Origin: Chloroflexota bacterium | GTDB taxonomy: Bacteria; Chloroflexota; UBA5177 | NCBI GenBank assembly: GCA_025966365.1 | Contig: JAICWV010000001.1 | Coordinates: forward strand, 911-64,910 | Length of the DNA stretch: 64,000 nt | Direction: 5' to 3' | Shown: positions 7,409 through 63,650 of the stretch, piece after piece | How the letters are laid out: each line of letters begins with the position of its first letter | How positions within the stretch are numbered: position 1 is the first letter of the stretch | Notes under the pieces: model-generated | What the model saw: only the letters and a program-made list of their open reading frames with translations | Told to the model about the DNA's origin: nothing | Database searches by the model: none | Position numbers and translations under genes: made by a program

Positions 7409-7487
7409 CCTTTGAGCTTAGACGAAGCCGTCACCTGGCCCGAGGCTTGCATTGGGGGATAGCGATACCTCTGAATGGAGGCACTCT

Positions 7488-7721
7488 ATGGACACCGACC
7501 TCCGGGATATCGCCGATTGGTGCAAGCGCTGGCACGACGCGCGGGAGCGCTACCTCGAGGCGCTGAAAGAGCCGGGCTCCTCACCGGAACTTCAGGACCT
7601 GCGGAACTGGGAAGATCGATATCGCATCGCCTTCGAGAACGCCTTCCACTCCTACTATGGGCGCTTTCCGATCCCCGGTGAGGATTGTGCCGAGGGCCGG
7701 CTGGCGGTATCAGACGCATAG
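7488..7721 (+). CDS. hypothetical small protein (77 aa)
   Basis: Non-biased composition (W/E/R rich). GGAGG lies 8 nt upstream of the ATG. Sits alone between two minus-strand genes. Confidence 0.4.
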   Translation: MDTDLRDIADWCKRWHDARERYLEALKEPGSSPELQDLRNWEDRYRIAFENAFHSYYGRFPIPGEDCAEGRLAVSDA

Positions 7722-7730
7722 CTCGTCCGG

Positions 7731-12683: not shown

Positions 12684-12730
12684 ACGGGCCCACCTCTCCC
12701 GTCCATACTACCCGCCTCCGGGGGAGAAGG

Positions 12731-44538: not shown

Positions 44539-44697
44539 TCAGGACCCGAGAGCGGCGTACAGGCATTGCACGATGACGATGATCACCAGGGAAGCTGCCG
44601 ATACAGCGATGAGGGCGGATCCAAGACGCAGCTGCAGGGACTCTGCCGGAATCACCGCGGTTCGTCCTGGAGCCAGATCCGTAAACGTGCGTGCCAT
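44539..44697 (-). CDS. candidate small membrane protein (52 aa)
   Basis: Reads MARTFTDLAPGRTAVIPAESLQLRLGSALIAVSAASLVIIVIVQCLYAALGS with one TM helix. GGAAAGGGG lies ~8 nt upstream of the ATG. Sits in a 290-bp AT-richer gap, antisense to nothing. Tentative. Confidence 0.3.
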   Translation of the reverse strand: MARTFTDLAPGRTAVIPAESLQLRLGSALIAVSAASLVIIVIVQCLYAALGS

Positions 44698-44817
44698 GAC
44701 AGATGCCCCTTTCCGTGTGTCTTGTCTGGCTATATTGGACCACTCATTCGTGCTCAGCAGTAGGGTCGTCGTGCCTGCTCTCGGAGAGACCATGGTCATG
44801 GCAGGAGATGTTGCTCC

Positions 44818-46086
44818 ATGATCCGCCGCACCACGCCACGCCACATCGTCTTTCTCTCGCTGGACTTCTATCCTGACGATCAGGCAGTCAGCCAGCTCTT
44901 CACCGACCTCCTCCTGGCCGTGCGCCGCGACATGCCCTATGTCAGGATCACGGTCCTGTGCGGATTCCCCATGCAGACAGCGGCCGGCGCTGGAGAGCCT
45001 ATCCCGCGGCGAGAGAGCTTGAATGGTATAGAAATCCGGCGTTGCGGTATCCGCGTGCGGGACAAGAGCACACTCATCCGTCGCGCGACACTCTACGCCT
45101 CGTTTTTGCTCCACGCCGGATGGGAATTGCTTTGGTTGGGCCGAGGAAGCCTGGTCTTCGGCGTCACCAGTCCGCCATTCGGGGCGCATCTCCTCTGGCT
45201 TACCTCGTGGCTGGCGCGCTTCCCCTACCAATACATGTTCCTGGACATCTATCCCGAAGCGCTCGTTGCGCTTGGCCGACTGAAGCCGAACGCTTTTCTG
45301 ACCCGCTGCTGGATGTTTCTCAACCATCTGAGCTACCGCCGCGCGTCGAAGCTTGCTGTGCTCGGACGCGATATGATCCCCCTCCTCCAGCACCACTACG
45401 AGATCGCTCCCGGTCGGATCACCTACATTCCACACTGGAGCGCGTCTGAGGTCGAGTGCCCGAGCCTCTTCACGGAAAACAGATTGGCACGGCGGCTGGG
45501 TCTGGAGGATAAATTCGTCGTCCAGTACTCCGGCAATATGGGTCTGCTGCACGATATCGACACGCTGGTCCGTGCCGCCGACCTCCTGAAGAACACTCCG
45601 AACATCCACTTCCTCTTCATCGGCAAGGGACGCAGACGGGCAACGGCCGAGCGGCTCGCGCGCGAGCTCGATCTTCCCAATATCACCTGGCTGGATTTCG
45701 TGCCGCGTGAGCGACTGCATGAGACGCTCTCTTGCTGCCGGGTGGCACTGGTCTCGCTGCGCCAGGGCATGGAAGGCGTGGCCGTCCCCAGCAAGCTTTA
45801 CGGCATCCTGGCTTCGGGCCGCACCGTGGTGGCACAGGTTCCCCATGGGTCCGAGATCGCGTGCGTGGTCGAGGAAGAAGGCTGCGGCGTGGTGGTCGAG
45901 CCGGGAGACGCGGCCGGACTGGCCGAGGTCCTACGAATGCTGGCGTCGAGCCCGGAGCAAACCGAACTCATGGGCGCCAACGCCTTCGAAGCCTACCGCG
46001 CAACGTACACGCTGGAGCAGGCAGTCACCGCCTTCGAAGAACTCTGGGGACTCCGGAAAACCGGACTGCTCAGCTCAGCCGGATAG
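44818..46086 (+). CDS. glycosyltransferase family 4
   Basis: GT-B fold. C-terminal donor-binding region (…VPSKLYGILASGRTVVA…) as in WbuB-like GT4 enzymes. Confidence 0.7.
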   Translation: MIRRTTPRHIVFLSLDFYPDDQAVSQLFTDLLLAVRRDMPYVRITVLCGFPMQTAAGAGEPIPRRESLNGIEIRRCGIRVRDKSTLIRRATLYASFLLHAGWELLWLGRGSLVFGVTSPPFGAHLLWLTSWLARFPYQYMFLDIYPEALVALGRLKPNAFLTRCWMFLNHLSYRRASKLAVLGRDMIPLLQHHYEIAPGRITYIPHWSASEVECPSLFTENRLARRLGLEDKFVVQYSGNMGLLHDIDTLVRAADLLKNTPNIHFLFIGKGRRRATAERLARELDLPNITWLDFVPRERLHETLSCCRVALVSLRQGMEGVAVPSKLYGILASGRTVVAQVPHGSEIACVVEEEGCGVVVEPGDAAGLAEVLRMLASSPEQTELMGANAFEAYRATYTLEQAVTAFEELWGLRKTGLLSSAG

Positions 46087-50587: not shown

Positions 50588-52333
50588 TTACTTGAAGTGG
50601 AAGTTGGCCAGATGCTGGGTGGTGTCCGCCAGGGTGACGGTGAGGACCCGGCAGGTCCCCTTCCAGCTCGAATCGGTCTTCCAGGCGTACGTGTATTGAT
50701 CAGCCGTGGCGTCGTAGCTCAAGCTGCTGTTTCCGGCCGTCACCGTCTGATCGATTTGCGATGACGTGGAGGACAGAGATCCGCAATCGACCTGTTGCGA
50801 CGCCGGAGAGCCGGCCGGGAAGATGCTCAGCCCCTGGTTCCCGGTCAGGCTGAACTTCACCGGGACGGTGCTGCCCGCCTTTGCCGTGTTGACAACCGTG
50901 GGATTATCTACCGGCTGGAAGAAGCCCTTGAAGTTGTAGATCACGGTGTAGGTGCACGCCATGGACGTGCCGGTGTTGCCGGCAACATCCGTGGGGGCCG
51001 GCGCGGTGACGGTGTGCGGCCCCACCGTGGAGGTATCGAGCGGGATTGAGCCGGTTGCCTGGGTCGCCACGCCGGAGCCATTGGAGTTGTCGGTGGCGGT
51101 CCATGTCGCCGCGGGCGGCGAGGACCCAAGGATCACCGTCGAGGGGCAGGTACCCGCATCAAAGGCCACGGTGGGAGCGGTGCTGTCGATTTTGAACGTC
51201 AGCGTGTGCGTCGACTCCACGTCCGGAGTCGGAGACGCAGAATCCTCCGAGTGAAATTGCAGCGTGTGTGTTCCATCGCCCTGGACGGTCAGAGAGTTCC
51301 CTGCCTGCGACGAACCCCCGTCAACAGAGTAGTAGGTCGTGACGTTACCACCCAGGTAGTACACCTTGTGCGGCGCCAGGCTGACGGAAACATCCTCCCG
51401 ATACCAGCCGTTTTGATCCGGAGGCAGATAGGAGGCGGTGGTCTGCGGCGGAGCCTGATCGACCACGCAATCCTGGACCAGGCTCGTGCTGGGATCAGGC
51501 TGCACATCGAACGACGGGGTGTTGTTGGGGTTATTGGGATCGACACCTGAGCCGGTCGGCTCCTGGTCAGTTTGCAGGACATCATCGAAGCTGGAGCCAT
51601 CGGTGTTCGCTGTGAAGTCCCCATCTGCGCCCGTGCCGAAGGGGGGCGCGGCTCCATTTTCGCCATCGTCGGTGGCTACCCACCCGCCAATACGGCCGGC
51701 ATCGTCGCCATTTGAATCGGGGAAGGCAGCGGGCCCTCCTGTCCTATCGTCGTCCTCGTTGAGCAGCCCATTGGTTCCTGGAGCCCCATGATCGAGACGC
51801 CAGATGGAGGCAACGATCTCCTCACCCACGCTCTGCGTGGCGTAGTGAACGATCTGGGTGTCCCCGGTCCAGGTCCCGTCCGCATTGGTGGCGGGCGATC
51901 CCACGTGGGCATCCGAGGTCGAATCGGTGCTCGGGGAGGTGAAGAGCATGTGGGGGAAGCTTCCCTCGGTGATCGGGACCTGAGTCGGGGAGCTATTCGT
52001 GTTGGATGGCGTGCCGTAGTCACGAATATCCGCTATCTGCAACGAATGCGCCTCGTGGCCCGTATTGCGCAGGTCTCCGAGCTCCTGGTAGGCGACATTG
52101 ACCGCGATTCCGTCGGTGCAGATGTAGTTGCTCAGCGTGTAGAGGTTGTCCATTCCCTCGTCGCCACCGCCGAAGGCCCTGGGATCCGAGGCGAAGCTCA
52201 TGCCATTGGCCGCGGCGGCGGACGCAAGCTGGGTTCCCGGCGCCGTCCGACCGCCCACTATGCGGGCGCTACCGCTTCCAAGCACACCCGCGACCACGGT
52301 AATCACGATGAAACTCAAGATTCTCTGGTACAT
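50588..52333 (-). CDS. secreted acidic (Asp/Gly-rich, Ca-binding-like) protein with C-terminal beta-domain
   Basis: Signal peptide MYQRILSFIVITVVAGVLGSGSA. DxDxDG-like acidic repeats. The C-terminal domain has P-x-K-F-like segments (FKGFFQPV, TVPVKFSL). Strong SD AGGAGGAAGGAAGAGGAG. Confidence 0.6.
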   Translation of the reverse strand: MYQRILSFIVITVVAGVLGSGSARIVGGRTAPGTQLASAAAANGMSFASDPRAFGGGDEGMDNLYTLSNYICTDGIAVNVAYQELGDLRNTGHEAHSLQIADIRDYGTPSNTNSSPTQVPITEGSFPHMLFTSPSTDSTSDAHVGSPATNADGTWTGDTQIVHYATQSVGEEIVASIWRLDHGAPGTNGLLNEDDDRTGGPAAFPDSNGDDAGRIGGWVATDDGENGAAPPFGTGADGDFTANTDGSSFDDVLQTDQEPTGSGVDPNNPNNTPSFDVQPDPSTSLVQDCVVDQAPPQTTASYLPPDQNGWYREDVSVSLAPHKVYYLGGNVTTYYSVDGGSSQAGNSLTVQGDGTHTLQFHSEDSASPTPDVESTHTLTFKIDSTAPTVAFDAGTCPSTVILGSSPPAATWTATDNSNGSGVATQATGSIPLDTSTVGPHTVTAPAPTDVAGNTGTSMACTYTVIYNFKGFFQPVDNPTVVNTAKAGSTVPVKFSLTGNQGLSIFPAGSPASQQVDCGSLSSTSSQIDQTVTAGNSSLSYDATADQYTYAWKTDSSWKGTCRVLTVTLADTTQHLANFHFK

Positions 52334-52651: not shown

Positions 52652-54634
52652 CTACAGGTGCGGGCCCTGGAAATACAGGTGTGGCTCGAGCCAGTGGTTG
52701 GGTGAGACCACCGGCGGCGGCTGCCGGGGAAGAGGTATGGGCTGGATGGCGCGAGGCACGATGGGCGCGGTGATAGACCACTGGCGGTCGGGGTGCATGA
52801 GGCGCCAGGTTCTGGTTCCTCCCAGCGCATCGTGAAGCGTCACCACCACCGAGTCCGGGTGGCTTCCCGGCTGATGCTGAAGGACCAGGCCGTAGCGCCG
52901 TCCACCCGACCAGGAGAGGGCATTGGGCGGCACGACGTAGTGCAGCCTGATAACCGCGGTCTTGCCGCGCCGAACGATGACATAGCCGGGAAACTCGGTC
53001 TTGCCGTAGGCGGGCCCCGGCGTCCACGGGTCTGTCCACCCAGACTGATCCACAAGCTGGCCACCGGCGGGAACGAGCACGCGGAGGTAGCTGGCGTAAT
53101 CGTCCGGACCTCCCAGCATGCCGCCTCCCGGACCGACGCCCTGGCTCATCCTGTCGGCCGGCTCCGGCTCGTTCCAGAAGCGGACCGCCAGCCGCGCGTC
53201 AAGCCAGCGGTCGGGCCGGACCGTGACGTTGTAGCGAACCGACTCGTGCACGTAGGGGTTGATCTTGTTGAAGGACAGGTTGCTGTCGACCAGGTACAGA
53301 TAGTCGCCGGTCGTCCGGCTGATCTCGCCGGAGGCGCCGAGGAGGCGAACCAGCTGCTCGTCCCGGGCGTCGGAAAAATGGAGCAGGAGATCGCCTCTGG
53401 CCACGGCGTCTTGCAATTGCGAGGCGAGACGCAGCCAGCCCCGGACATCCAGCGACTGAATCCGGGCGATCAGGTGCCCGGCCACGATGGGAATGAATCG
53501 CTTGGATGCGTTTGGCGCCCAGTGGGCGTAATAGTCCGTGAGCTGAGCGAGGTTATCGGCGGTGACCTGGCGGTGGTACTCGGGGACATACATGGGGCCG
53601 GTCGCGGCAAGGACGGCGGCTGCCGCCTGCGGGGTCACATTGATGACGCCGGTGGGGTTGGCACCCAGGTCCATGCGCACGAAATAGCGCTCCACCGCAG
53701 CGGTGGTGGGAAAGTCCGGTGACCAGTTGGAGTCGCGGAGCAGCCACCAGATCTCGTTATACAGCCGTATGGGCTCGGGGGCAGGAACCCGGAGCTGCTC
53801 GCGCTTCCGGATCTCGCTATTTTCGAAATGTTGTTTCACGGAGCCGCGATTGACCGTCACCAGGCCGAAGCTTCCGATGAACCCTCCCGTCGGCCGCAAC
53901 TCCAGCGGATCCTGATAGGCGATGAAGTACGTCATGGGGGTGGTTGCGCCGAGAAGGCGGGGGGCGAGCGTCAGGCTCAGGCAGGCAGCGCGCAGCGGCG
54001 GGAGCGCGGCATCAAAGGTGTGCAGCGCCGACGCCAGTTGAGCGGGTGGGTGCGCCGGGATCGTGCGGCGGATCCGCGCTGCCGAGCTGAAGAGCGCATA
54101 TGCGTGCTGGAAGGCGCCGCGCTGCGATGCAATACCCACTGAGAGCTCTTGCAGCCGGTGCCCACCCTTCTGCGCGCGTGCCCGGTGGACCACCGGACGG
54201 AGTGCATCGAGCAGCACCAGAATCCCATCCGAGGTGGTGGAGGCGAGCCGGGTGGCCGGCGGGGCCGCCGCCAGCTGACTGCCGATAACGGGAACCCACG
54301 CCAGATGCGCCAGGATCGGGCTGAGCGGCTCCAGACGCGCGTCGGCCGCCCCGAAATCAGCCCGGGCCCGGCGTACGCGGACCGTGGCCCCGGCGAGGGC
54401 CGTATCCGCTGAGGCAGCCGTGGTCACTCCACTCAGCCCTGTCCTGGCGAGATCGATCTGTGTGACTCCGGAGGTGATGAGGCCGCGCGCGGAAAGGAGC
54501 AGGTAGGCCGAGAGAATCAGCGCCGCCAGGAGGACGAGCACGGCAACACCTGCCAGGAGCAGCGGAGTGCGCGAGTGTCTTCGGGGCGCCGGAAGGGGCC
54601 GGGCCTCCGGCTCGACCGCGGGTCGTCTCACCAC
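52652..54634 (-). CDS. membrane-anchored extracytoplasmic protein, DUF4012-like
   Basis: N-terminal Arg-rich tail plus one TM helix (LLLAGVAVLVLLAALILSAYLLL), then a large ectodomain. Motif YQDPLELRPTGGFIGSFGLV recalls DUF4012. GTG start 1 nt from the upstream sortase stop. Confidence 0.5.
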   Translation of the reverse strand: MVRRPAVEPEARPLPAPRRHSRTPLLLAGVAVLVLLAALILSAYLLLSARGLITSGVTQIDLARTGLSGVTTAASADTALAGATVRVRRARADFGAADARLEPLSPILAHLAWVPVIGSQLAAAPPATRLASTTSDGILVLLDALRPVVHRARAQKGGHRLQELSVGIASQRGAFQHAYALFSSAARIRRTIPAHPPAQLASALHTFDAALPPLRAACLSLTLAPRLLGATTPMTYFIAYQDPLELRPTGGFIGSFGLVTVNRGSVKQHFENSEIRKREQLRVPAPEPIRLYNEIWWLLRDSNWSPDFPTTAAVERYFVRMDLGANPTGVINVTPQAAAAVLAATGPMYVPEYHRQVTADNLAQLTDYYAHWAPNASKRFIPIVAGHLIARIQSLDVRGWLRLASQLQDAVARGDLLLHFSDARDEQLVRLLGASGEISRTTGDYLYLVDSNLSFNKINPYVHESVRYNVTVRPDRWLDARLAVRFWNEPEPADRMSQGVGPGGGMLGGPDDYASYLRVLVPAGGQLVDQSGWTDPWTPGPAYGKTEFPGYVIVRRGKTAVIRLHYVVPPNALSWSGGRRYGLVLQHQPGSHPDSVVVTLHDALGGTRTWRLMHPDRQWSITAPIVPRAIQPIPLPRQPPPVVSPNHWLEPHLYFQGPHL

Positions 54635-56034
54635 CAGAGCCGGATAGGCTTGCCGCCGGATGAAAGCTCTTGCACGCGATTGTTCTGGCTATCCACCACG
54701 TACACATTGCTGCGCGCGTCCACCGCAACGCCGTAGGGCTTTCGGAATTGGCCGAGACCTGATCCCGTCTTGCCCCACGTCGCGCTCAGTTTGCCCGAGG
54801 TCGAATAGCGCAGCACGCTGTCGATCTTGGGGCTCACCACGTAGACGTGACCGCTGCCATCTGCCGCCACGCCCTCTGGTGGGACGGACTCCCAGCGCTT
54901 GAGCTTGACCTTGACCTTCCACATCTTCAGGAAGTCCCCGTTGGGCGAGAGCTTCTGAATCCGTCCGTTTGCCGAGTCGGCCACGTAGATGGTCCCGTCC
55001 GGCGCGACCGCCACGCTGTCCGGGTACCAGAATTCGCCGTGGCCGTGACCGAAATGCCCCCAGGTGGCGAGCACCTGCCCGGAGGGCGACAGCTTCACAA
55101 TCTGATTGGCGCTCGAATTCGCCACGTACACGTTCCCCTGAGCGTCCACGGCAACACCGGCGGGATCATCCAGACTGACCTTGACTGATCCGGTGTCACC
55201 CCACTGCGCCAGCGGCTGACCGGTGGCAGAAAAGACCTGAACTCGATGATTGCCGTCATCCGCTACATAGACGGTGCCGTTGAGGGCCACGGCCACGCCG
55301 GAGAGTCCCCGGAACTGGCTGGTTCCCGTGCCGTAGGTACCCCACCTGTGCAGTGCACGCCGCCGCGCGTCGAACGTGGCGATCCTGTTGTTGCCGGCAT
55401 CGGCAATGAACACATCTCCCTTGCGGTTGACCGCGACGCCGAGCGGTGTCGTCAGCGAGGGCAGCGCGGCGCCACCGGGGAGCGTGGTGAGGGTGGCATA
55501 GACGATCTGCCGGTGGTCGTATCCGGTCCCGTCGCGGTGGAACACGCCCGCGCAGGTGATCAGGAAGAGGCCGCGCTCCTTGGTGGCGGCATCCATAAAG
55601 CCAGTCGGCATTCCGCTGTCGGAGTACTCGCGATTCCACCGCACCTTGAATGTCAGGCTCTGACCGTCAGCGTATTGCACGGTAATTCCGTCACCCCGCA
55701 CCAGGTCCTTCAAGTGCCAGAACACGGCGGGACAGCAGTATGAGTCGAGGTGGCCGTAGATCTGGGCGCGCCCCATATCGCCCGGGCGCGGTCCCTGCGA
55801 GTACCAGGCGACATCTCCCCATTTGTACGGCGCCTCGGTATCGGTTGGATGCGTCATGGAGACTGACTCGACGGCCGTGCGGATGCCGAGTCTGGGAATG
55901 CTCACCACCCTGGGCCAGCCGGGCGGCACGATTTGCATCCGCGTGGCGATAGGGGTTGCCGCGCGTAACGTTGAGGCCGGCGTGACGATCGGAAACAGGA
56001 TCAGTCCGATCATGACGATCAGCGCGCGGTTCAT
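54628..56034 (-). CDS. sortase (class E/F-like) fused to six NHL beta-propeller repeats
   Basis: Signal anchor MNRALIVMIGLILFPIV. Sortase catalytic pattern (IYGHLDS...GDGITV...LFLITCAG...R). Six NHL repeats (GVAVDAQGNVYVAD, PDSVAVAPDGTIYVAD...). Confidence 0.7.
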   Translation of the reverse strand: MNRALIVMIGLILFPIVTPASTLRAATPIATRMQIVPPGWPRVVSIPRLGIRTAVESVSMTHPTDTEAPYKWGDVAWYSQGPRPGDMGRAQIYGHLDSYCCPAVFWHLKDLVRGDGITVQYADGQSLTFKVRWNREYSDSGMPTGFMDAATKERGLFLITCAGVFHRDGTGYDHRQIVYATLTTLPGGAALPSLTTPLGVAVNRKGDVFIADAGNNRIATFDARRRALHRWGTYGTGTSQFRGLSGVAVALNGTVYVADDGNHRVQVFSATGQPLAQWGDTGSVKVSLDDPAGVAVDAQGNVYVANSSANQIVKLSPSGQVLATWGHFGHGHGEFWYPDSVAVAPDGTIYVADSANGRIQKLSPNGDFLKMWKVKVKLKRWESVPPEGVAADGSGHVYVVSPKIDSVLRYSTSGKLSATWGKTGSGLGQFRKPYGVAVDARSNVYVVDSQNNRVQELSSGGKPIRLWW

Positions 56035-56177
56035 TCCGTTCTTGCCAGTGGGAGAATGCACAACGCCAATAGTACGCCGCCTGGACGGCGGACGCGAACC
56101 GAGGGCCCTCTTCCCGCGGCTGTCCCGGCGTGTTACTGCTGATGCGGGGGTAATTGACGGAATTTCCATTCAGACTC

Positions 56178-56206
56178 TTTACGATGCACGAGAACCATGA
56201 TATAGT
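56178..56206 (+). promoter_or_regulatory. sigma-70-like promoter candidate (TTTACG-17-TATAGT) upstream of the PqqD-fusion gene
   Basis: AT-rich island in a GC-rich genome. 17-nt spacer. Lies ~105 nt upstream of the ATG at 56312. Confidence 0.4.
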
Positions 56207-56311: not shown

Positions 56312-56923
56312 ATGGACGGGCGAGCAGAAGATCTAGCACCCTTGGCGCGGTCCAAAGGGCTCGTTGTTCGCGAGCTCGACGGTGAGATTCTCATCTTTGA
56401 CCGCGAGAGTGATGCAGCGCACTGTTTGAATGATGTGGCAGCGGGCGTCTGGAAACGTTGCGATGGCTATACCACCATTGCCGAGATGGTGGACGATCTA
56501 TCGAGCACCTCGGGAACTCGGGTTGACGAGTACGTGATTTACAAAGCGCTTGCCGACCTGAGCAAGAAGGATCTCTTGCTCGAGGAGGTGAAGTCGCCAC
56601 GATCACGCAAGGAGATGTCGCGGCGCGACATGATGGTGAAGTCCGCGGCCGCCGCAGTCATCATGATCCCGGTGATCAAGTCGCTGTCGTCACCCAGTGG
56701 CGCTTACGCAGCAGGTGTATGCACCGGCTGCGTCGCGCACAATCAGCCCTGTTCCAGCACGCAACCGTGCTGCGGCGCCGGCGTTAATTGCAAACTCTCC
56801 GGCTGCTGCTATCTCGGGACTGCCTGTTCCGGGACCGGCACCTGCGGTGTCTGCAGCGGATGTGAGTGCCAGCCCAATAGCCACACCGGCTGCGGTCAGC
56901 CGTGCGCGGAGACCGGCTGCTAA
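56312..56923 (+). CDS. PqqD-like (RRE) domain fused in frame to a twin-arginine-like signal/TM segment and a 16-Cys C-terminal domain
   Basis: GGGAGGG 4 nt upstream of ATG 56312. PqqD pattern LVVRELDGEILIFDRESDAAHCLNDVAAGVWKRCDGYTTIAEMVDDL. Then MSRRDMMVKSAAAAVIMIPVIKSLSSPSGAYAAG. Then VCTGCVAHNQPCSSTQPCCGAG...CAETGC. Confidence 0.6.
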   Translation: MDGRAEDLAPLARSKGLVVRELDGEILIFDRESDAAHCLNDVAAGVWKRCDGYTTIAEMVDDLSSTSGTRVDEYVIYKALADLSKKDLLLEEVKSPRSRKEMSRRDMMVKSAAAAVIMIPVIKSLSSPSGAYAAGVCTGCVAHNQPCSSTQPCCGAGVNCKLSGCCYLGTACSGTGTCGVCSGCECQPNSHTGCGQPCAETGC

Positions 56924-56985
56924 GACGCCAACCGAGTAGCGGATCCATGCAGGTTCGTCCTGCGTGTGGGTTTCAGATTCGGATG

Positions 56986-57019
56986 GGCGGACGCGGGTTC
57001 TCTTCCACCCACGTCCGCC
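56986..57019 (+). terminator. GC-rich hairpin (GGCGGACGCGGG-loop-CCCACGTCCGCC, 11/12 bp) 60 nt downstream of the Cys-rich gene stop
   Basis: Read from the sequence. No U-tract (I-shaped), as is common in high-GC bacteria. Confidence 0.35.
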
Positions 57020-57069: not shown

Positions 57070-57098
57070 TTGATTTGAGCCGGAACTCCGCGTATTAT
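57070..57098 (+). promoter_or_regulatory. sigma-70-like promoter candidate (TTGATT-17-TATTAT) upstream of the MauE-thioredoxin gene
   Basis: Near-consensus hexamers with a 17-nt spacer, ~50 nt upstream of the ATG at 57151. Confidence 0.4.
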
Positions 57099-57150: not shown

Positions 57151-58698
57151 ATGCCTGTACTTGTCCTCATTGTCCGCCTGTTGCTGGCGGGCGTGTTTGT
57201 GTTGTCCGCGACCACAAAGCTTTTTGATCGCCTGGGCACACGGCAAGCTGTTGCGGACTTTGGTGTGCCGGAAGCGCTCGTGGAGGGCGTTGCGTTCGCG
57301 CTGCCGGTGGCCGAGCTGCTCGTCGCGGTGCTTCTCATCCCCGGCTCGATCGCCTGGGTCGGCGGGATCGGGGCGGCAATCATCCTGGTGGCTTTCTGCG
57401 TCGCCATCTCAGTCAATCTCGTGCGCGGCAATATCGTGGATTGCCACTGCTTCGGGCAGGTCCATTCAGAGCCCATCAGCACGCGGGTACTGGTTCGCAA
57501 CGCGGTCCTCATCGTGGCAGCTGCATTCGTCGCGATAGCGGGTCGTCCCAATCGAGACCCCAGCGCCTTTCAATCACTGGGATTGACGTCCAGCTTCCGG
57601 TGGGAGGCCGCGGGCATGGGTCTGCTGATGCTCGCGCTGCTCGGAACACTCACCTGGCTCGTGCTCCGCATGAGCGCTGACAACAAGCAATTATTTATCA
57701 GGATGAAGCTGCTCGAGGCCGACATTCGGAGCGGAGGCGTTACTGCCCGTGCCGGCGACGAGGAGGACGCCGTTGAGGACGAAGATCCGAACGTGGGGAA
57801 GCCCGCTTCGTGGCTGGAGCTGCCGAACCTGACGGGCCAGAAAATAACTCTGGCGGATCTCGCGGCACGCGGGAAGCCGATTCTGATGGTCTTTGTCCAT
57901 CCCTCCTGCGCCACGTGCTCGGTGGTGCTGCCCATGGTCGCCCGCTGGCAGCAGGAGTACTCATCCCGATTGACGATTTCGATCATCAGCGGCGGCAAGC
58001 TCCGGGCGAATGTCGAGAAAGCGGAGGAGTACGGCCTTCAGGAAGTCCTGGTGCAGAAACGGCACGAGATAGAGCAGGCATACTCGATTCCCAGAGTACC
58101 GAGCGCAGTCATGGTCTTGCCGGATGGAAGGATTGGAAGTCCCGTCGCGACCGGGCCCGACGACATCCGCGCCCTGTTTGACATCGTGCTGGACCTCGTC
58201 CACGAGCAGATGACCGGTGCTCCCACGCCGCACGTCCATGACAATCCCAATGGCCATAGCCAGGTGGCATGGCCCGATATCAGCATCCCGGCCCCAACGG
58301 TCAGGCTTCCGGACGCAACCGGCCGAATCGTCGACCTGAAGGAGTTCCGAGGTCAGCGGGTTATGCTGCTCTTCTGGGGAACCAACTGCTACCACTGCGA
58401 CCAGATGCATCTCGATATCAAGGAGTGGGAGGCGGATCCGCCGGAGGGGGCCCCAACCCTTGTCATGGTCGCCGTCGGTCCCGAGGAGGAGGTGCGTGCC
58501 TCGGCCAGGGAGTACAGGTCCACCATGCTCGTGGATCCCGAGTTTGAGGTTGGACCCACCTTCAACATCAGTGGCGCCCCCCTCGCAGCGCTGATCGACG
58601 AGGATGGAACATATGTCACGCGTATCGCGGGCGCATACGACATCCTCGGAGTGCTCCGGAACGAGATTCCATGGCCGTCCGCCCTCACCCGGAGCTGA
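57151..58698 (+). CDS. MauE/DoxX-family membrane domain fused to two thioredoxin-like (TlpA/MauD-like) domains
   Basis: Four TM helices with a CHCFG motif (MauE-like). Two thioredoxin-fold segments with CxxC (HPSCATCS; GTNCYHCDQ). GGGAGAG 8 nt upstream of the ATG. Confidence 0.75.
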   Translation: MPVLVLIVRLLLAGVFVLSATTKLFDRLGTRQAVADFGVPEALVEGVAFALPVAELLVAVLLIPGSIAWVGGIGAAIILVAFCVAISVNLVRGNIVDCHCFGQVHSEPISTRVLVRNAVLIVAAAFVAIAGRPNRDPSAFQSLGLTSSFRWEAAGMGLLMLALLGTLTWLVLRMSADNKQLFIRMKLLEADIRSGGVTARAGDEEDAVEDEDPNVGKPASWLELPNLTGQKITLADLAARGKPILMVFVHPSCATCSVVLPMVARWQQEYSSRLTISIISGGKLRANVEKAEEYGLQEVLVQKRHEIEQAYSIPRVPSAVMVLPDGRIGSPVATGPDDIRALFDIVLDLVHEQMTGAPTPHVHDNPNGHSQVAWPDISIPAPTVRLPDATGRIVDLKEFRGQRVMLLFWGTNCYHCDQMHLDIKEWEADPPEGAPTLVMVAVGPEEEVRASAREYRSTMLVDPEFEVGPTFNISGAPLAALIDEDGTYVTRIAGAYDILGVLRNEIPWPSALTRS

Positions 58699-59585
58699 AT
58701 CCATTCCACGCTGATCGGCTGGTTGTGCTCCGGGGTGAGGATCTCCCCCGGCTGAGGTACCCGGTGGCCGGCTTGCGTGAGCTCGATGGGCGGGCCTGGG
58801 GTGCCGGGATAGCAGTCAGCGCCTACGGCGTTCGTCTCGGCGTGCGAGCAGAGCATTCCTCTGTGCTGCTTGGCCTTGGTGATGTTCTCCCGCCGGGATG
58901 GCGCAGCGTGACCGGACCGTCACCGCGAGTCGATCGCCTGTACTCTCTGGTCTTTCCGCAGGATGGTCCGCCGCTCGTGTACGACAACGCCACGTCGTGG
59001 ATCGGGCTCAGCTCCTTCCCGTGGCCTGATGTTCTGGAGCAACTGACGACGTCCCGCGTGGTGCGTCTGGCCACCCGGTACGTCTTCGTGCATTCCGGCG
59101 TCGTGGCATGGCAGGACCGAGCCATCGTGATTCCCGGCGACAGCCGGTCCGGAAAGACCACACTGGTGGCCGCGCTGATTCGGGCCGGCGCAACGTACTA
59201 TTCGGATGACTTCGCCGTCATCGATTCGTCGGGGCTGGTTCGCCCATATGCGCGGCCACTGAAAATACGACGCTCGAGGTTCGGAGAGTTTGACAGGCAC
59301 CGGGTGGAAGAACTGGGTGGCCGGCGGGGGATCAATCCGATTCCCATGGGCGCGGTGGTACTGGCGCCCTATGAAGAAGGAGCCGGCTGGCAGCCGCACA
59401 CGCTCTCGCGGACCGAAGGGCTCGCGTTGCTCATGATGAACAGCATGCAAAAGCGACGGCGGCCCGAGTGGGTGCTGGACGCCCTGACGAGAGCTGCGTC
59501 TCATGCCGTAATGATTGGCAGCAGTCGGGGCGACGCCGACGAAACGGCGCGGCGCATTCTCGAGACCGCCTCCACCCTCACGTGA
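58671..59585 (+). CDS. HPr-kinase-related serine kinase (HprK C-terminal-domain homologue)
   Basis: P-loop IPGDSRSGKTTLVAALIRAG, comparable to the HprK GxSGxGKS. ~300 aa. 28-nt overlap with the upstream gene. Confidence 0.65.
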   Translation: MAVRPHPELNPFHADRLVVLRGEDLPRLRYPVAGLRELDGRAWGAGIAVSAYGVRLGVRAEHSSVLLGLGDVLPPGWRSVTGPSPRVDRLYSLVFPQDGPPLVYDNATSWIGLSSFPWPDVLEQLTTSRVVRLATRYVFVHSGVVAWQDRAIVIPGDSRSGKTTLVAALIRAGATYYSDDFAVIDSSGLVRPYARPLKIRRSRFGEFDRHRVEELGGRRGINPIPMGAVVLAPYEEGAGWQPHTLSRTEGLALLMMNSMQKRRRPEWVLDALTRAASHAVMIGSSRGDADETARRILETASTLT

Positions 59586-60532
59586 GCCGTTCTTTCAGCG
59601 CAGCGGCTCACAACCTCCGGGTGTGGGGCCACGCCCTCCCCATACTCGAGAAGCTGTCCGAGGCGGACATTCCGGTGGTCATTCTCAAGGGTCTTCCTCA
59701 AATCGAGGATCTGTATGGCGACCCGGGGACACGAATGACCTCGGATGTCGACATGCTCGTTCCGTCCCGGCACGCACGATCCACGCTCGCGCTTCTTGCC
59801 GACGCAGGATGGCAGCCGGGAAGCGCGTCCACGCTGCGCTGGCTCACCTCATCCCAGGGGGCCGAAGCCGCATCGTCGCGTCCATGGCACATGCATCCGC
59901 CTCCGAACCTGACCGGCTGCCTCATCGATCTGCATTTCGATCGCATGACCCGGAGCCCGAAGCCGACTCTTGACCCGAGCATCTGGGAGCGAGCCGTGCG
60001 GATGTCACGTGACGGTGCCGATTTCCTGGTCCTCGGTCGGGAGGATCAACTGCTTTTTCTGTGCTACCACTTCGTGACCGACCACCTTCCCTGGCACAAG
60101 CTTCGAGATATCGAGGTGCTCCTGGGCCGCTCGACAGAGCTGGATTGGGACTACATTGCCCGGCGCGCTCGCCTCTCCGGTGTCACCATTGCCGTCTACC
60201 TTGCGTGCCGGCTCGCGGCGCGCGATGCAACGGATCCAGTCCCGGACAACTGGCGGGGTGTCGCTCCGGTGGACCGTCTCCGCGCCTCGGTCCTGGCCGC
60301 CATGTTGGATCGCCGCCCCGGGCTTGCCCAGTCGCGTTACTGGGCGCTCGTGTGGCTGCTCGCGCATGATCGTCCCTGGGACATGCGGACGGTGTGGCGC
60401 CACATCTTCTTCCCTGACCGGGTTACCATCGCGGCTGAATATCTTGGCCGCTGGCCATCGCGGGCCGAGTATCTCGCCGAACTGGGGCGCATCTACCTGC
60501 GTCGTATCCGGAAAAGTTTCGGACGCGCATAG
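59582..60532 (+). CDS. nucleotidyltransferase-family protein (PF14907-like)
   Basis: GTG start overlapping the upstream stop (GTGA). Pol-beta-type motif ...KGLPQIEDLYGDPGTRMTSDVDMLV (G..D.D). Confidence 0.55.
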   Translation: MSRSFSAAAHNLRVWGHALPILEKLSEADIPVVILKGLPQIEDLYGDPGTRMTSDVDMLVPSRHARSTLALLADAGWQPGSASTLRWLTSSQGAEAASSRPWHMHPPPNLTGCLIDLHFDRMTRSPKPTLDPSIWERAVRMSRDGADFLVLGREDQLLFLCYHFVTDHLPWHKLRDIEVLLGRSTELDWDYIARRARLSGVTIAVYLACRLAARDATDPVPDNWRGVAPVDRLRASVLAAMLDRRPGLAQSRYWALVWLLAHDRPWDMRTVWRHIFFPDRVTIAAEYLGRWPSRAEYLAELGRIYLRRIRKSFGRA

Positions 60533-60656: not shown

Positions 60657-62294
60657 ATGCACCTTGGAAACCTGAATCTTTCGACCTATCTCCGCTATAC
60701 GCGTCTCTGGATTCTCTTCGCTGTCCTGCCCGCTCTGGTCGCGGGAGCCCTGGGCTATCTGAACACCAGGGCGCAGCCGAAGACGTACAACGCCTCCGCG
60801 TCTCTCTACGTGCAGCAGCCGACACAGAGCGGCATCGGCGTCAGTGGGGTGCAGGACCTGTATGCCAGCAGCCAGTTGGCTCAGACATACAGCCAGCTCG
60901 CGGTGCAGCCGACCGTCGAAGCGGCAGCCGACGTGCTGCTGGCGAAGAAGTATCCTGGATACCGGATCGAGGATCACGGCCTCCAGAGCGCCCCTGCCAG
61001 CATTCAGCAACAGACTCCTCTGATCATCCTCAGCCTGTCGGACACGGTGCCCAAGCGTGCGGCTGATGCGGTCAACGCGGCCAGCCGCGCATTCATCGGT
61101 CGCATCGATCAATTCAACCAGCTTCGCTTTGCCACCGATGACCAGGCACTGTCGGCTCAGATCGGCAAGCAGAAGGCGGCGATCAACAAGATTCTGGGCC
61201 AGATCGCAGTCTATAGAGGGCCGACAAGCGGCCTGGATGGTCTGAAGACGGCCCTCAGTGCCTACCAATCGACGTATCAGTCGCTCGTCTCGTCTCAGCA
61301 GCAACTGCGTATCGAGCGCGACATCTCGTCGAGCACCATCAACGTCTATTCCAGGGCCACACCGCCCACATCGCCAACCGGTCCTCACCCGACGCGCACA
61401 GCACTCTACTGGGCGCTGCTCGTGCTCCTGGCCGGATCGGCAGCGGTGTATGGATACGAGTATTTGAGTGACCTGCCGGCAACGCCGGAAGAGGTGAGTG
61501 AGATCGCGGGGGCTCCAGTCCTGGCGGCGATCCCGGCCGCACGCGGTCGCCGGGCGCGGCGCCGCCTCATCGAGGAAGGTCAAGCCCAGCCGCTCGACGA
61601 CGAGGGATACCGCCTGATCCGGACCAACATTCAGTTCGCCAGCATCGATCGTCCGCCACACACCTTGCTGGTCACCAGCGCGCTTCCCGGCGAGGGCAAG
61701 ACGACCACGGCATCCAACCTGGCGCTGGCATTTGCCGATGGCGGCCGATCGGTCATCCTGGTGGACGGCGATTTGCGCCGCCCCTCGATGCACCATCTGT
61801 TCGACACTCGGTCGGCCAACGGCCTGACCCAGCTTATTCTGTCGGTGCAGACAAACGGGCATCGGCCGGGTCATGAGGTATACCGCAACCTGGCCGTGAT
61901 TCCAGCCGGTCCCCTTCCGCCCAATCCTGCCGATATCCTCGGCTCCACCCGGATGGTCGAACTGGTCCGCAATCTGCGCGGGCATTCCGAGGTCGTCATC
62001 ATCGATGCTCCTCCCGTTCTGGCGGCATCAGACGCGGCCATCCTCTCCACCCTCGTGGATGGGGTGATCCTCGTGGTCGATCTGCACAAGACCAAGCGCC
62101 GGGAGATCAGGCGAGCGCGCGAGGCGATCGAGGCAGTCAACGCCAGGTTTATGGGCGTCGTCATCAACCGCTTCCAGGTGCGCGACCGCTCGTACTATTA
62201 CGAGTATTCCGAGAGCTATGGAGCGAAGAGGACACCCGGCGGCCCGCCGGACAGCAGGGATGCGAGCCCGTCGCTGCCCAGTTCCCTTCGCTAG
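60657..62294 (+). CDS. polysaccharide co-polymerase / tyrosine autokinase (Wzc/BY-kinase)
   Basis: N-terminal Wzz-like domain with two TM helices. CpsD-like ATPase with Walker A SALPGEGKTTTASNLA and DxD. C-terminal tyrosine cluster YYYEYSESYG. Confidence 0.85.
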   Translation: MHLGNLNLSTYLRYTRLWILFAVLPALVAGALGYLNTRAQPKTYNASASLYVQQPTQSGIGVSGVQDLYASSQLAQTYSQLAVQPTVEAAADVLLAKKYPGYRIEDHGLQSAPASIQQQTPLIILSLSDTVPKRAADAVNAASRAFIGRIDQFNQLRFATDDQALSAQIGKQKAAINKILGQIAVYRGPTSGLDGLKTALSAYQSTYQSLVSSQQQLRIERDISSSTINVYSRATPPTSPTGPHPTRTALYWALLVLLAGSAAVYGYEYLSDLPATPEEVSEIAGAPVLAAIPAARGRRARRRLIEEGQAQPLDDEGYRLIRTNIQFASIDRPPHTLLVTSALPGEGKTTTASNLALAFADGGRSVILVDGDLRRPSMHHLFDTRSANGLTQLILSVQTNGHRPGHEVYRNLAVIPAGPLPPNPADILGSTRMVELVRNLRGHSEVVIIDAPPVLAASDAAILSTLVDGVILVVDLHKTKRREIRRAREAIEAVNARFMGVVINRFQVRDRSYYYEYSESYGAKRTPGGPPDSRDASPSLPSSLR

Positions 62295-62537
62295 CTCCCA
62301 TGGCCCCTGATTGACCCAGTTGTCAATTTAGGGGGTGACAACTGTCTCATTCGGTGGTACAGTGGTCACGGTCAAAAGTCCCAGCAATCCGAGGACGTAA
62401 GTCCTGGCTGGTCTTTGCGTGATCCATAGGAGGTATGGAAGGGACCGGCGGGAAGGAAAGGGAAAGGCCCAGCCTGTGGTCTGGTTGGGGGGGACAGAAC
62501 GGTGGATATAGTTCGTCTGGTTGCTGCGGGTGTGGAC

Positions 62538-63650
62538 ATGCCCCTCATCGCCGCAGCACTTCTGGTAACGGTGGCCTCGTACGTCGGGGTCGCGTTGGTT
62601 CGATTCTATGCCCCGCGCGTCGGCTTTTTCGATCTGCCCAATGAGCGGAGCTCGCACGCTCGTCCAATACCTTCCGGCGGCGGTCTTGCCTTTGCCGTCA
62701 TCACCCTTGGCGCCTGGTGGTGGTTGCTCGAGTTCCATCCGAGCATTCCCCTGGTTCAGGCGGTCAGGACGCAGCACGCGCTGGCCTTTATCATTGCCGG
62801 CGCCCTCATCGCCGGAATCAGCCTGATCGACGATCTCGGTCATGTGCCGGTCGTCTTCCGACTGGCGGTCCATGCCATCGGGGCGGCGGTCTTTGTCGCG
62901 TTCTTCGCGTGGTGGTCAGCGCTGAATCTGCCACTCCTGGGCTGGGTCACCCTGGGAACCGCCGGGGTATTCATCTCGATCTTCTGGATCGTCGGCATGG
63001 TCAATGCCTACAACTTCATCGACGGTCTCGACGGAATGGCCGGTGGCCAGGCGGCCGCAGCCGGGCTTGGGTGGGTGGCTCTGGGCTTCTCAACCGGCCA
63101 CTTCGCCATCGAAGCCATGGGTGCTCTGCTTGCCGCCAGCAGTATTGGGTTCCTCTTCCACAACTGGCACCCTGCCAGGATCTTTATGGGAGACGTGGGC
63201 AGTACCTTCCTGGGATTCTGCTTTGCCATTCTGCCGATCATCGCCGCTCAATACGATCCACGATTGGCGCTGGCGGGCGTGCTTCTCGTGTGGCCCGCAC
63301 TCTTCGATACCGGCTTTACCATCGTCAATCGCCTGCGCCGCGGCGAGAACGTCTTTACCGGGCACAAAGAGTTCCTCTTTCACCGCCTGGTAGCAGCTGG
63401 ATGGAGCCATGCCGCCGCATCCACGCTCTATTTCACGCTGCCGCTGGCTGGAGCAGGCCTGGCCTTCACCTGGCAGTACGGAAGCACGTCGCTGCACGTC
63501 GCTGCGTTGTGCTCCATCGTGCTTCTCTGCGTTGGTCTCTGGGCACTCGTCCGCGACCAGGAGAAGCGACACCTGGCGCAGCTGCAGGAAGTTCCCTCGG
63601 CCGACAGCATGCGGCCGGAACCCGCCAGGAGAGTGGCCGGGCGGGTCTAG
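62538..63650 (+). CDS. UDP-HexNAc:polyprenyl-phosphate HexNAc-1-phosphate transferase (WecA/MraY family)
   Basis: About 10-11 TM helices. Conserved motifs NAYNFIDGLDG and MGDVGS. Confidence 0.85.
   Translation: MPLIAAALLVTVASYVGVALVRFYAPRVGFFDLPNERSSHARPIPSGGGLAFAVITLGAWWWLLEFHPSIPLVQAVRTQHALAFIIAGALIAGISLIDDLGHVPVVFRLAVHAIGAAVFVAFFAWWSALNLPLLGWVTLGTAGVFISIFWIVGMVNAYNFIDGLDGMAGGQAAAAGLGWVALGFSTGHFAIEAMGALLAASSIGFLFHNWHPARIFMGDVGSTFLGFCFAILPIIAAQYDPRLALAGVLLVWPALFDTGFTIVNRLRRGENVFTGHKEFLFHRLVAAGWSHAAASTLYFTLPLAGAGLAFTWQYGSTSLHVAALCSIVLLCVGLWALVRDQEKRHLAQLQEVPSADSMRPEPARRVAGRV

Follow-up and report, generated by a model that had tools for sequence, protein, structure and literature searches.

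A PqqD-domain fusion protein with an internal twin-arginine-type signal and a cysteine-rich tail as a candidate self-contained precursor of a secreted peptide

A single gene of a Chloroflexota bacterium, at positions 56312–56923 on the forward strand of the window (the whole 64,000-nucleotide stretch of DNA analysed here), encodes a 203-aa protein in which a PqqD-type RiPP-recognition element (RRE), a linker, a twin-arginine (Tat)-type signal and a tail with 16 cysteines follow one another in one frame. The same architecture, with the same conserved motifs, recurs in every homologue found, and the gene usually sits between the genes of an HPr-kinase-like protein and a nucleotidyltransferase. 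We give an even chance to the reading of this fusion as a self-contained precursor, from which the tail would be exported, cleaved off and oxidized to yield a secreted, disulfide-rich peptide.

The start of the gene at ATG 56312 is backed by the N-termini of the homologues (MDG/MNG...), by a GGGAGGG sequence a few nucleotides upstream and by the gene calls in four assemblies. The gene sequence is identical across four independent assemblies and the architecture is family-wide, so a frameshift or assembly artefact joining two genes was rejected. The RRE occupies residues 1–95 (56312–56596) and presumably lies in the cytoplasm. It is followed by a variable linker of residues 96–101 (PRSRKE, 56597–56614), which includes an AAGGAG sequence at 56609–56614 and is unconserved in two alignments (A1 and A2), and by the signal of residues 102–133 (56615–56710), with a signal-peptidase site predicted after A133. 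The remaining 70 residues (56711–56920), AG and 68 others, contain the 16 cysteines counted in the earlier note and constitute the predicted exported, disulfide-bonded product. Directly 3' of the gene, a GC-rich stem-loop without a T run (56985–57019, forward strand; region z = -2.6) is possibly an attenuator that separates the precursor gene from those of the enzymes, judging from its predicted folding.

The PqqD domain of about 95 residues upstream of the signal, first recognized in the earlier note, is borne out by profile, model and structural comparison. Pfam PF05402 matches residues 26–67 of the window protein with 26.7 bits (cut-off 23.4), and a match to the same family is precomputed for most homologues. 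In the AF2 model, pLDDT is 95–98 across residues 11–90, and the fold is that of a winged helix (beta3-alpha3), with strands at residues 17–22, 25–30 and 35–39, followed by helices at 41–48, 56–67 and 73–85. The best Foldseek matches of the domain are the lasso RRE TbiB1 (target TM 0.75), PqqD and lasso B1. The NCBIfam matches stay below their cut-offs, both for ScmD (28.9 bits, cut-off 100) and for the PqqD equivalog (17.8 bits, cut-off 46). A SynChlorMet cassette was discarded on the first of these scores, and PQQ biosynthesis on the second, together with the absence of pqqA, pqqB, pqqC and pqqE nearby. Current annotations label members of the family “PqqD family protein” or “PqqD family peptide modification chaperone”, treating them as accessory.

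Behind this domain and in the same frame, the window protein reads M102-S-R-R-D-M-M-V-K-SAAAAVIMIPVI-K-SLSSPSGAYA133 / A134-G, which is the signal-like segment pointed out earlier. The Tat-type motif S-R-R-D-M-M-V-K begins at residue 103, the core SAAAAVIMIPVI comprises 12 uncharged residues between K110 and K123, with one proline inside, and the cleavage-type site is P128-S-G-A-Y-A133. The family logo is G-[MLIV]-[ST]-R-R-[EDQ]-[MLV]-[LIVM]-[RK]-[KR]-x-G, followed by a stretch of about 15 residues rich in Ala, Val and Leu and by P-T-A-A-x-A, with Pro at +16 and +24 and Ala at +27 and +29. In the RR motif, S or T is present in 86% of the members, the first Arg in 100% and the second in 89%, followed by hydrophobic residues at +3/+4 and R or K at +5/+6; in the cleavage region, Pro +24 reaches 63%, Ala +27 51% and Ala +29 66%. 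R104, R105, P120 and three tail cysteines are invariant among 61 aligned sequences, and P128 is nearly so. The Tat consensus is S/T-R-R-x-F-L-K, and signal-peptidase sites obey the -3/-1 rule; read from its sequence, the conserved segment matches both. The RR motif, the hydrophobic core, the P...AxA site and the Cys-rich tail were found in every homologue examined, a recurrence far beyond chance.

The motif is internal in all homologues, so that the signal is Tat-like only and no canonical Tat signal peptide. To our knowledge, all validated cleaved Tat signals are N-terminal, which counts against an internal cleaved one. The hydrophobicity of the segment is low, with a 19-residue KD maximum of 1.67 in the window protein and 1.89 ± 0.19 in the family. 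A beta strand is modelled in the signal core of one member (P0173) by AF2. Low hydrophobicity is a requirement of internal Tat-dependent TM segments (PMC5449189).

The earlier note had offered two readings of this arrangement: a single polypeptide whose internal signal leaves the RRE in the cytoplasm and the Cys domain outside, or a further translation start, at ATG 56615 or 56630. The comparative data favour the first and not the second: one protein, not two, is indicated because every homologue is fused and the internal start is unconserved, the outcome that the note itself had named as speaking against a second start. A nested start at ATG 56615 (or 56630/56633), yielding a separate short Tat/Sec pre-peptide beside or instead of the fusion, therefore appears highly improbable. 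The elements described for it are present, as AAGGAG abuts ATG 56615 (codon 102 of the ORF from ATG 56312), an ATGATG pair follows at 56630–56635 (codons 107–108), and translation from M102 would give a Tat pre-peptide of textbook form. Working Shine-Dalgarno (SD) sequences lie about 5–10 nt from the start codon, whereas the spacing of AAGGAG is 0 nt to ATG 56615, 15 nt to 56630 and 18 nt to 56633; none of these ATGs has a ribosome-binding site at a working distance. The twin arginines would moreover be lost on initiation at 56630.

Among 272 proteins, the Met position is occupied by V in 48, M in 43, L in 41, R in 35, I in 35, Q in 33 and others in the rest. Met directly before SRR occurs in about 16–23% of the members and ranks first or second among the residues at this position, above what is expected of a generic hydrophobic position. 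This slight enrichment at -2 may mean occasional internal initiation in some members. The closest relatives (P0003, P0005, P0006, P0007 and P0023), however, have Ile there. Within the 15 codons before RR, an in-frame ATG, GTG or TTG is absent in 16 of 27 related genes and an ATG is present in one; a start with an SD-like site at 5–12 nt is found in two of the 27. The internal start was accordingly rejected as a feature of the family. The listed homologues (20 + 150 + 120) are all fusions, of 143–366 aa. A profile of signal and tail only, searched against 5.8 billion proteins, gave 253 matches, and the 120 of these that were listed all bear PqqD and measure 150–181 aa. Orthologues split into two genes, which the earlier note had suggested looking for, are thus absent among the 120 listed matches; very short ORFs often go uncalled, and rare split forms may exist among the family members.

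The basic residues of the signal can also be read as an effect of the positive-inside rule in a Sec/YidC-type insertion, in which the tail would cross the membrane unfolded and then be cleaved and oxidized, with the RRE and its partner enzymes having some other target. We regard this as quite unlikely. It is in keeping with the small size of the tails and their oxidation outside the cell, for which Tat is not required, and with a c-region devoid of basic Sec-avoidance residues. The positive-inside rule alone, however, gives no explanation for the invariant R-R, for the S/T before it and for the x-h-h-[RK]-[RK] pattern after it, and the core is low in hydrophobicity. A signal emerging behind a folded domain of 100 aa would moreover be ill-suited to co-translational targeting. 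In favour of the Sec/YidC route, MauE/Trx partners, one of which is encoded beside the fusion gene, have unfolded exported cysteines as their substrates (preprint 10.64898/2026.03.05.709764).

The homologues amount to 5,403 cluster representatives (over 5,000 clusters when grouped at 50% identity), the fusion being present in all those found, and the named matches come from Acidobacteriota and Actinomycetota MAGs. In the full-text literature, related systems only were retrieved and no description of the RRE-signal-Cys-tail fusion architecture was found; for this large family, we thus found no published description in the literature searched. A genome scan with alignment A1 yielded eight genome loci. 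The fusion gene is multicopy, with tandem pairs and one array of eight genes, and the contigs of MAGs end within the RRE two to three times per MAG. While the RRE and the signal are conserved, the tails are hypervariable in sequence and length (13–159 aa). This combination of a conserved RRE and signal, a hypervariable tail, tandem pairs, an eight-copy array and contig breaks in the RRE amounts to precursor-like behaviour.

The number of cysteines is even in 140 of 144 family tails. Many six-Cys members share the spacing C-x6-C-x5-CC-x3-C-x4-6-C, and the AF2 model of one of them has a tail pLDDT of 81–89. This modelled tail superposes on ICK toxins, omega-atracotoxin and a conotoxin (target TM 0.86 and 0.62), with Foldseek E-values of about 2.4 that are non-significant because the tail domain is tiny. 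The 16-Cys tail of the window protein is not reducible to a single knot, and AF2 confidence for it is low, leaving its model unusable. One family tail (L011) matches Pfam UPF0506. The even Cys counts, the ICK-like tail model, the UPF0506 match and a neighbouring MauE/thioredoxin gene all support an extracytoplasmic location of the tail.

This neighbouring gene (57151–58698, forward strand, as are the genes that follow) encodes a MauE/DoxX membrane domain and two thioredoxin-like (ResA/MauD-like) domains in one protein. Pfam matches it to MauE with 97.7 bits and to AhpC-TSA/Redoxin, NCBIfam gives partial matches to ResA and MauD, and its translation contains a C-H-C within the MauE part as well as two CxxC motifs, C-A-T-C and C-Y-H-C. 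MauE replaces DsbB, with CXC as the active site (preprint 10.64898/2026.03.05.709764), and the motifs of the fused protein suggest a dedicated disulfide-forming module. Only the members of the close clade (L001, L005 and L009) have this module beside the fusion gene. The 3' end of its gene is overlapped by the gene of an HPr-kinase-like P-loop protein (58671–59585; motif GDSRSGKTT), whose match to TIGR04352 (HprK_rel_A) is partial and weak (47.5 bits, cut-off 200) and for which a PDB sequence search gave nothing useful. With a 4-nt overlap follows the gene of an NTP_transf_5 nucleotidyltransferase (59582–60532; Pfam PF14907, 123 bits, and gene call). A polysaccharide tyrosine autokinase (BY-kinase; 60657–62294; TIGR01007, 177 bits) completes the context.

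Across the family, no other gene accompanies the fusion gene as constantly as the HPr-kinase-like one, and NTP_transf_5 lies directly downstream of the fusion gene in L011, L020, L024, L026, L036, L040 and L049. In 10 of 15 non-redundant loci with both flanks, one or both of these genes adjoin the fusion gene, with both present in seven. The five well-flanked loci in which both enzymes are absent count against a tailoring model. In lasso-peptide systems, an HPr-kinase homologue and a nucleotidyltransferase phosphorylate and glycosylate the precursor (PMC8498205); this precedent, the adjacency of the enzymes and the structural matches of the RRE to the leader-binding B1 proteins of lasso systems support a role of both enzymes on the precursor. 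The substrate of the lasso kinases is a C-terminal Ser, and only six of 144 family tails end in Ser, which counts against a lasso-like acceptor. A lasso cluster as such was rejected, as the cassette has neither a cyclase, which is an Asn-synthase homologue, nor a transglutaminase-like B2 protease. Asn synthases in the window (21872–23791) and in L005 bear GATase domains and lie among glycosyltransferases.

The cassette lies within or next to polysaccharide loci, both in the window and in L005, L009, L011, L037, L040 and L049, and the BY-kinase of the window has counterparts beside the cassette in L005, L009, L011, L037 and L040. Such a recurrent position could reflect a role unrelated to peptide maturation. 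It would suit an uncleaved signal-anchor, which would make the fusion a bitopic protein with a cytoplasmic RRE, one span and an external Cys domain that would sense or regulate the polysaccharide machinery (BY-kinase, glycosyltransferases) or serve as its scaffold, with the kinase-like protein and NTP_transf_5 as cytoplasmic partners. We consider this unlikely, though not negligible. The hydrophobic stretch of the family consensus, about 17 residues, could span the membrane, and uncleaved internal Tat-dependent TM segments are known (PMC5449189). The core of the window protein, however, with just 12 uncharged residues including a Pro, is too short for a stable anchor, in which neither the conserved Pro at -5/-6 nor the A-x-A site would have an obvious purpose; the Pro/AxA site and the shortness of the core together speak for a cleavable export signal and against a permanent anchor. 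The hypervariable tails and the tandem and eight-copy genes, which occur apart from polysaccharide and enzyme genes, also fit secreted products better than a receptor. Of the internal “signal-anchor” that had been proposed initially, the topology is retained and permanent anchoring considered the less likely alternative.

In the self-contained precursor, the RRE would fold and remain in the cytoplasm, where it would serve as a built-in leader to which the HPr-kinase-like protein and the NTP_transf_5 nucleotidyltransferase encoded alongside would dock, both being predicted binding partners. These enzymes would probably modify the precursor before export, by phosphorylation and then by sugar or nucleotide transfer; modification in the cytoplasm would account for an export route that is post-translational and tolerates folded cargo. 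SRRDMMVK, the short weakly hydrophobic core and P..AYA would together form an internal twin-arginine-type export signal, which would insert as a hairpin so that only the C-terminal 70-aa tail crosses the membrane. Signal peptidase would cleave after AYA133 to release the free tail, and the MauE-thioredoxin-thioredoxin membrane protein would pair its 16 cysteines into eight disulfides. It is conceivable, though on balance doubtful, that these steps make up a maturation logic new to the literature searched, with an RRE in the precursor, an internal Tat-type leader and export tag, cytoplasmic decoration by a kinase and a nucleotidyltransferase, and thousands of hypervariable knottin-like peptides of soil bacteria, perhaps linked to loci for cell-surface polysaccharide.

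If true, this would be a RiPP precursor carrying its own recognition domain, and genome-mining tools would need a different precursor search. It would also represent a natural twin-arginine-type signal that acts mid-protein behind a folded soluble domain and is cleaved there, and would bring to light a very large, hypervariable reservoir of small bacterial peptides, disulfide-rich and partly knottin-like. If the segment were an uncleaved anchor instead, the fusion would still count as a conserved element in many polysaccharide loci, one on which we found nothing published.

Several known systems share parts of this arrangement. In the spacing of the six-Cys members and the resemblance of one modelled tail to omega-atracotoxin and conotoxin (E non-significant), the family recalls the animal and plant knottins (ICK), whereas the poorly modelled 16-Cys tail of the window protein is not one knot. 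Bufferins are likewise Cys-rich ribosomal peptides with an export signal that doubles as leader (PMC11626156), and in the candidate clusters found by decRiPPter in Streptomyces, MauE is paired with precursors of at least eight Cys (PMC7794033). The signals of both are N-terminal, however (of the Sec type in bufferins), and their precursors have no RRE; bufferins also depend on MNIO enzymes in place of a kinase and a nucleotidyltransferase. MauA, methylamine dehydrogenase's small subunit, is a small, very Cys-rich exported polypeptide beside MauE and a thioredoxin-like partner (MauD), according to PMC7794033 (citing van der Palen 1997) and preprint 10.64898/2026.03.05.709764. In contrast to the mau system, the other mau genes are absent here, MauE is fused to two thioredoxin domains, and the cargo is hypervariable and no enzyme subunit.

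With respect to export, a parallel is provided by the dual Sec-Tat membrane proteins (the actinobacterial Rieske protein Sco2149, Sco3746 and polyferredoxins), in which an internal twin-arginine motif precedes a weakly hydrophobic segment and the C-terminal domain is translocated post-translationally (PMC3471235, PMC5449189). Their motif comes after Sec-inserted TM helices, the present one after a domain that is soluble and folded; their cargo is a large cofactor domain behind an uncleaved segment, and here it is a Cys-rich peptide of 13–159 aa behind AxA.

The HPr-rel-A system, defined by the TIGR04352 kinase and the PqqD-family protein TIGR04353, named PqqD_rel_X, resembles the window in the position of a kinase-like gene beside a PqqD-family gene. 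It differs in that the window kinase scores 47.5 bits against a cut-off of 200 and TIGR04353 is not among the NCBIfam matches listed at E <= 0.01. The description of this system is not known to include the signal or the Cys-rich tail, and the full-text literature searched yielded nothing on an HprK-related kinase. Overlap is also seen with the phosphorylated and phospho-glycosylated lasso systems of paeninodin and pseudomycoidin, in which a PqqD-like RRE (B1), an HPr-kinase-like protein and NTP_transf_5 are co-encoded (PMC8498205), and the best structural matches of the fusion RRE are indeed lasso B1 proteins. The fusion cassette, however, has no lasso cyclase or B2 protease, and its presumed substrate has an export signal, many cysteines and no conserved C-terminal Ser. 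The RRE is a separate protein in the lasso systems, whereas here it is fused to the presumed substrate itself.

The fusion gene lies on the forward strand of the window and ends at position 56923. The ATG at 56312, giving a protein of 203 aa, is the preferred start, because the N-termini of homologues (MDG or MNG) coincide with it, a GGGAGGG is found a few nt upstream and the gene is called alike in four independent assemblies. The window itself matches contig JAICMP010000001.1 of GCA_025929235.1. Residues 1-95 are a RiPP recognition element (RRE): the Pfam PqqD score is above the cut-off, AlphaFold2 models the domain with a pLDDT of 95-98 in the order beta3-alpha3, and Foldseek matches it best to TbiB1 and B1, lasso proteins that bind leaders, and to PqqD. 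None of the curated NCBIfam models reaches its cut-off for this protein, and the public naming of its relatives goes no further than “PqqD family protein” or “PqqD family peptide modification chaperone”. The RRE is followed by ...PRSRKE-M102-SRRDMMVK-SAAAAVIMIPVI-K-SLSSPSGAYA133, a putative cleavage site and a tail beginning with AG; the C-terminal 70 residues contain 16 Cys.

The earlier note located an AAGGAG abutting ATG 56615 and an ATGATG at 56630-56635, and these positions are exact on re-reading of the sequence: the AAGGAG occupies 56609-56614, ATG 56615 is codon 102, and the ATGATG forms codons 107-108. Its proposal that translation starts a second time at ATG 56615 or 56630 is not supported, as the homologues listed are all fused and share no conserved internal Met or SD site. 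A word-index search returned 20 relatives, and HMMER, run exhaustively over 1.84 billion cluster representatives, gave 5,403 at E <= 1e-3 (2,544 at E <= 1e-10). The HMMER matches listed are all 143-366 aa long, and in nearly all of them the best match spans the RRE, the hydrophobic segment and the tail. A profile of the signal and tail alone, with the RRE left out, was run against 5.8 billion proteins; the 120 matches listed are all 150-181 aa long, 118 of them carry the PqqD Pfam domain, and no split version, with signal and tail as a gene of their own, was found among them.

The residue at the position of M102 is not conserved. It is M in 23%, L in 20%, I in 16% and V in 11% of 162 proteins anchored on the twin Arg, and a set of 272 proteins gives V48, M43, L41, R35, I35, Q33 and others; several of the closest relatives have Ile. 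At the DNA level, 27 distinct related genes were inspected over the 15 codons preceding the twin Arg: an in-frame ATG, GTG or TTG is absent there from 16, an ATG is present in only one, and only two have an SD-like site at 5-12 nt before a start codon. In the window, the AAGGAG is poorly spaced, with 0 nt between it and ATG 56615 and distances of 15 and 18 nt to the two ATGs that follow, and initiation at either of the latter would remove the twin arginines. Met is somewhat over-represented family-wide at -2 from the first Arg (16-23%, above the expectation for a generic hydrophobic site), which could be a relic of an ancient fusion between a PqqD gene and a downstream pre-peptide gene, or a mere hydrophobic preference. 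Members that carry this Met thus retain a low probability of making some internal product in minor amounts. The interest of the finding rests on the family, not on the internal ATG.

The segment following the RRE resembles a Tat signal. The Tat consensus is S/T-R-R-x-F-L-K, and signal peptidase sites follow the -3/-1 rule, with a helix-breaking Pro. The family logo anchored on the twin Arg begins G-[MLIV]-[ST]-R-R-[EDQ]-[MLV]-[LIVM]-[RK]-[KR]-x-G and continues with an Ala/Val/Leu-rich part with Pro at +16, then [TS]-S-[IL]-x-A-P(+24)-T-A-A-x-A(+29), so that by sequence its start and end match these two patterns, respectively. The twin Arg and the two prolines are invariant or nearly so across alignments, and the first tail Cys comes at about +31 or later. 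The core has low hydrophobicity (19-residue Kyte-Doolittle maximum of 1.89 +/- 0.19 in the family and 1.67 in the window). In the window, only 12 uncharged residues, including one Pro, separate K110 from K123, which is the length of a signal peptide and not of a membrane span. The topology put forward in the earlier note for a single polypeptide is supported, but for the segment a cleavable export signal is likelier than a plain anchor. Internal twin-arginine motifs are known to drive post-translational membrane passage of the C-terminal domain in actinobacterial Rieske and related proteins, where low segment hydrophobicity mattered (PMC3471235, PMC5449189). In those Rieske-type proteins, however, the motif comes after Sec-inserted helices and is uncleaved. 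The AlphaFold2 model of a six-Cys homologue, P0173, has a beta strand at residues 119-123 (VTSIV), part of the hydrophobic core of the signal. Pairing of this modelled strand with beta3 of the RRE, if it occurs, might allow the domain to retain the signal in cis, in the manner of a Tat proofreading chaperone.

The tails are 13-159 residues long and cannot be aligned across the family. An even number of Cys is found in 140 of 144 tails (6 in 62, 8 in 26, 10 in 13, 12 in 14, 14 in 11 and 16 in 4), which argues that all tail Cys are paired and hence that the tail would be extracytoplasmic. Among tails with six Cys, the patterns C-x6-C-x5-CC-x3-C-x4-6-C and C-x-C-x5-C-x5-C-x5-C-x5-C are both common, and the tail of one related locus (L011) matches Pfam UPF0506 above its cut-off. 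The tail of P0173 is modelled with a pLDDT of 81-89. Its structural matches are omega-atracotoxin-Hv1a, on which it superposes with a target TM of 0.86 and an rmsd of 0.7 A, and a conotoxin, with non-significant E-values for so tiny a domain. The 16-Cys tail of the window itself gives a low-confidence AlphaFold2 model.

Directly 3' of the fusion gene, a strong GC-rich stem-loop without a T run is present at 56985-57019 (+), the 146-nt 3' region having a z of -2.6. It is followed by genes for a protein that joins a MauE/DoxX domain to two thioredoxin-like ones (MauE-Trx-Trx, 57151-58698), an HPr-kinase-like P-loop protein (58671-59585), an NTP_transf_5 nucleotidyltransferase (59582-60532) and, downstream, a BY-kinase and an initiating glycosyltransferase. 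The kinase-like gene overlaps MauE-Trx-Trx by 28 nt (58671-58698) and NTP_transf_5 by 4 nt (59582-59585); these overlaps suggest translational coupling of the three enzyme genes. Together with sigma-70-like sites before the fusion gene (56178-56206) and before the MauE gene (57070-57098), the stem-loop could provide a high precursor-to-enzyme ratio. As read from the translation, a C-H-C motif is present in the MauE domain and a CxxC in each of the thioredoxin domains; a 2026 preprint shows MauE to be a replacement of DsbB with a CXC active site (10.64898/2026.03.05.709764).

Divergent from the fusion gene, a protein combining a class F sortase domain with a multi-blade NHL beta-propeller (partial match, ScyF-like) is encoded at 54628-56169 (-), an unusual sortase architecture that also adjoins the fusion gene in L009/L010. 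A DUF4012 protein is also encoded upstream on the other strand and, further upstream, a polysaccharide operon of ~23 kb. The large polysaccharide locus around the cassette (21872-44528 (+), 60657-63650 (+) and 52652-54634 (-)) encodes an AsnB-type amidotransferase, an ABC-2/Wzt exporter, an FkbM methyltransferase, ~8 GT4/GT2 glycosyltransferases, Wzy, a carbamoyltransferase, the BY-kinase, a WecA-like initiating transferase and DUF4012. Two proteins of 581 aa (50588-52333 (-)) and 435 aa (44539-45846 (-)) have no Pfam match; a hydrophobic segment at its N-terminus and stretches rich in Ser, Thr and Pro make the former a candidate surface protein connected with the adjoining sortase. The cassette recurs within polysaccharide loci (the window, L005, L009, L011, L037, L040 and L049), a placement compatible with the fusion protein acting as a regulator or scaffold anchored in the membrane.

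In iterated HMM searches over 40 non-redundant related loci, the commonest neighbour is the kinase-like gene, usually immediately upstream of the fusion gene, and the Pfam-confirmed NTP_transf_5 gene is usually immediately downstream. In 15 of the loci the sequence extends for at least 1.5 kb on either side of the gene; one or both enzymes are present in 10 of these, and the pair in seven. MauE-Trx-Trx is beside the fusion gene only in the close clade of the window (L001, L005, L009), whose tails have 8-16 Cys; L013 has a further copy ~5 kb away on the other strand. Three of the five enzyme-free loci are multicopy: L027 and L045 carry tandem pairs, and L048 carries eight paralogues in 14.5 kb. 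Their copies conserve the RRE and signal regions with unrelated Cys-rich tails. In L048 (JGI Ga0671665_0000025, a 141-kb contig), the paralogues lie on both strands with tails of ~45-100 aa and many Cys, and no kinase-like or NTP_transf_5 gene is found within 1-14495. In Pyrinomonadaceae/Blastocatellia MAGs (L012-L018), seven of eight matches are contigs ending within the RRE-coding region (aa 47-59), 2-3 per MAG, which suggests that several near-identical copies, repeated in their 5' regions, break the assemblies. We infer that a conserved front, hypervariable cargo and multicopy genes, some far from the enzymes, represent the pattern of RiPP precursor families.

In lasso clusters, an HPr-kinase homologue and a nucleotidyltransferase together phosphorylate the C-terminal Ser of the precursor and then attach hexoses to that phosphate; the pair occurs alongside the PqqD-like B1, which binds the precursor leader (PMC8498205). 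Since the same enzyme pair is found there with a PqqD-like protein, a scheme of four steps is the most economical reading. The RRE would be a built-in docking domain that recruits the kinase-like and NTP_transf_5 enzymes, within the cytoplasm, to the polypeptide of which it is part. The internal signal is then predicted to export the tail through Tat, which acts post-translationally and tolerates folded or modified cargo. Signal peptidase would free the tail, and in the clade of the window, MauE-Trx-Trx would oxidise it. Tat dependence, cleavage and modification are predictions of this scheme, and the rarity of a C-terminal Ser (6 of 144 tails) is a weak point of a lasso-like modification.

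The fusion protein belongs to a very large family whose architecture is unusual, and full-text literature searches found no account of an RRE joined in this way to a signal and Cys-rich tail. The system shares a partial likeness with several known ones. A lasso cluster is ruled out by the absence of a cyclase and a B2 protease, and the curated HPr-rel-A system by a score of 47.5 bits against a cut-off of 200, with TIGR04353 not among the matches listed. A component of a PQQ or SynChlorMet system was also rejected, and a canonical Tat pre-protein is ruled out because the signal is not N-terminal. Partial resemblances extend to MauA/MauE/MauD, to the bufferins, which are RiPP precursors bearing signal peptides (PMC11626156), and to decRiPPter candidate classes in which MauE is paired with precursors of 8 or more Cys (PMC7794033). 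The family is akin to known kinds, namely RiPP-like maturation and Tat-type export.
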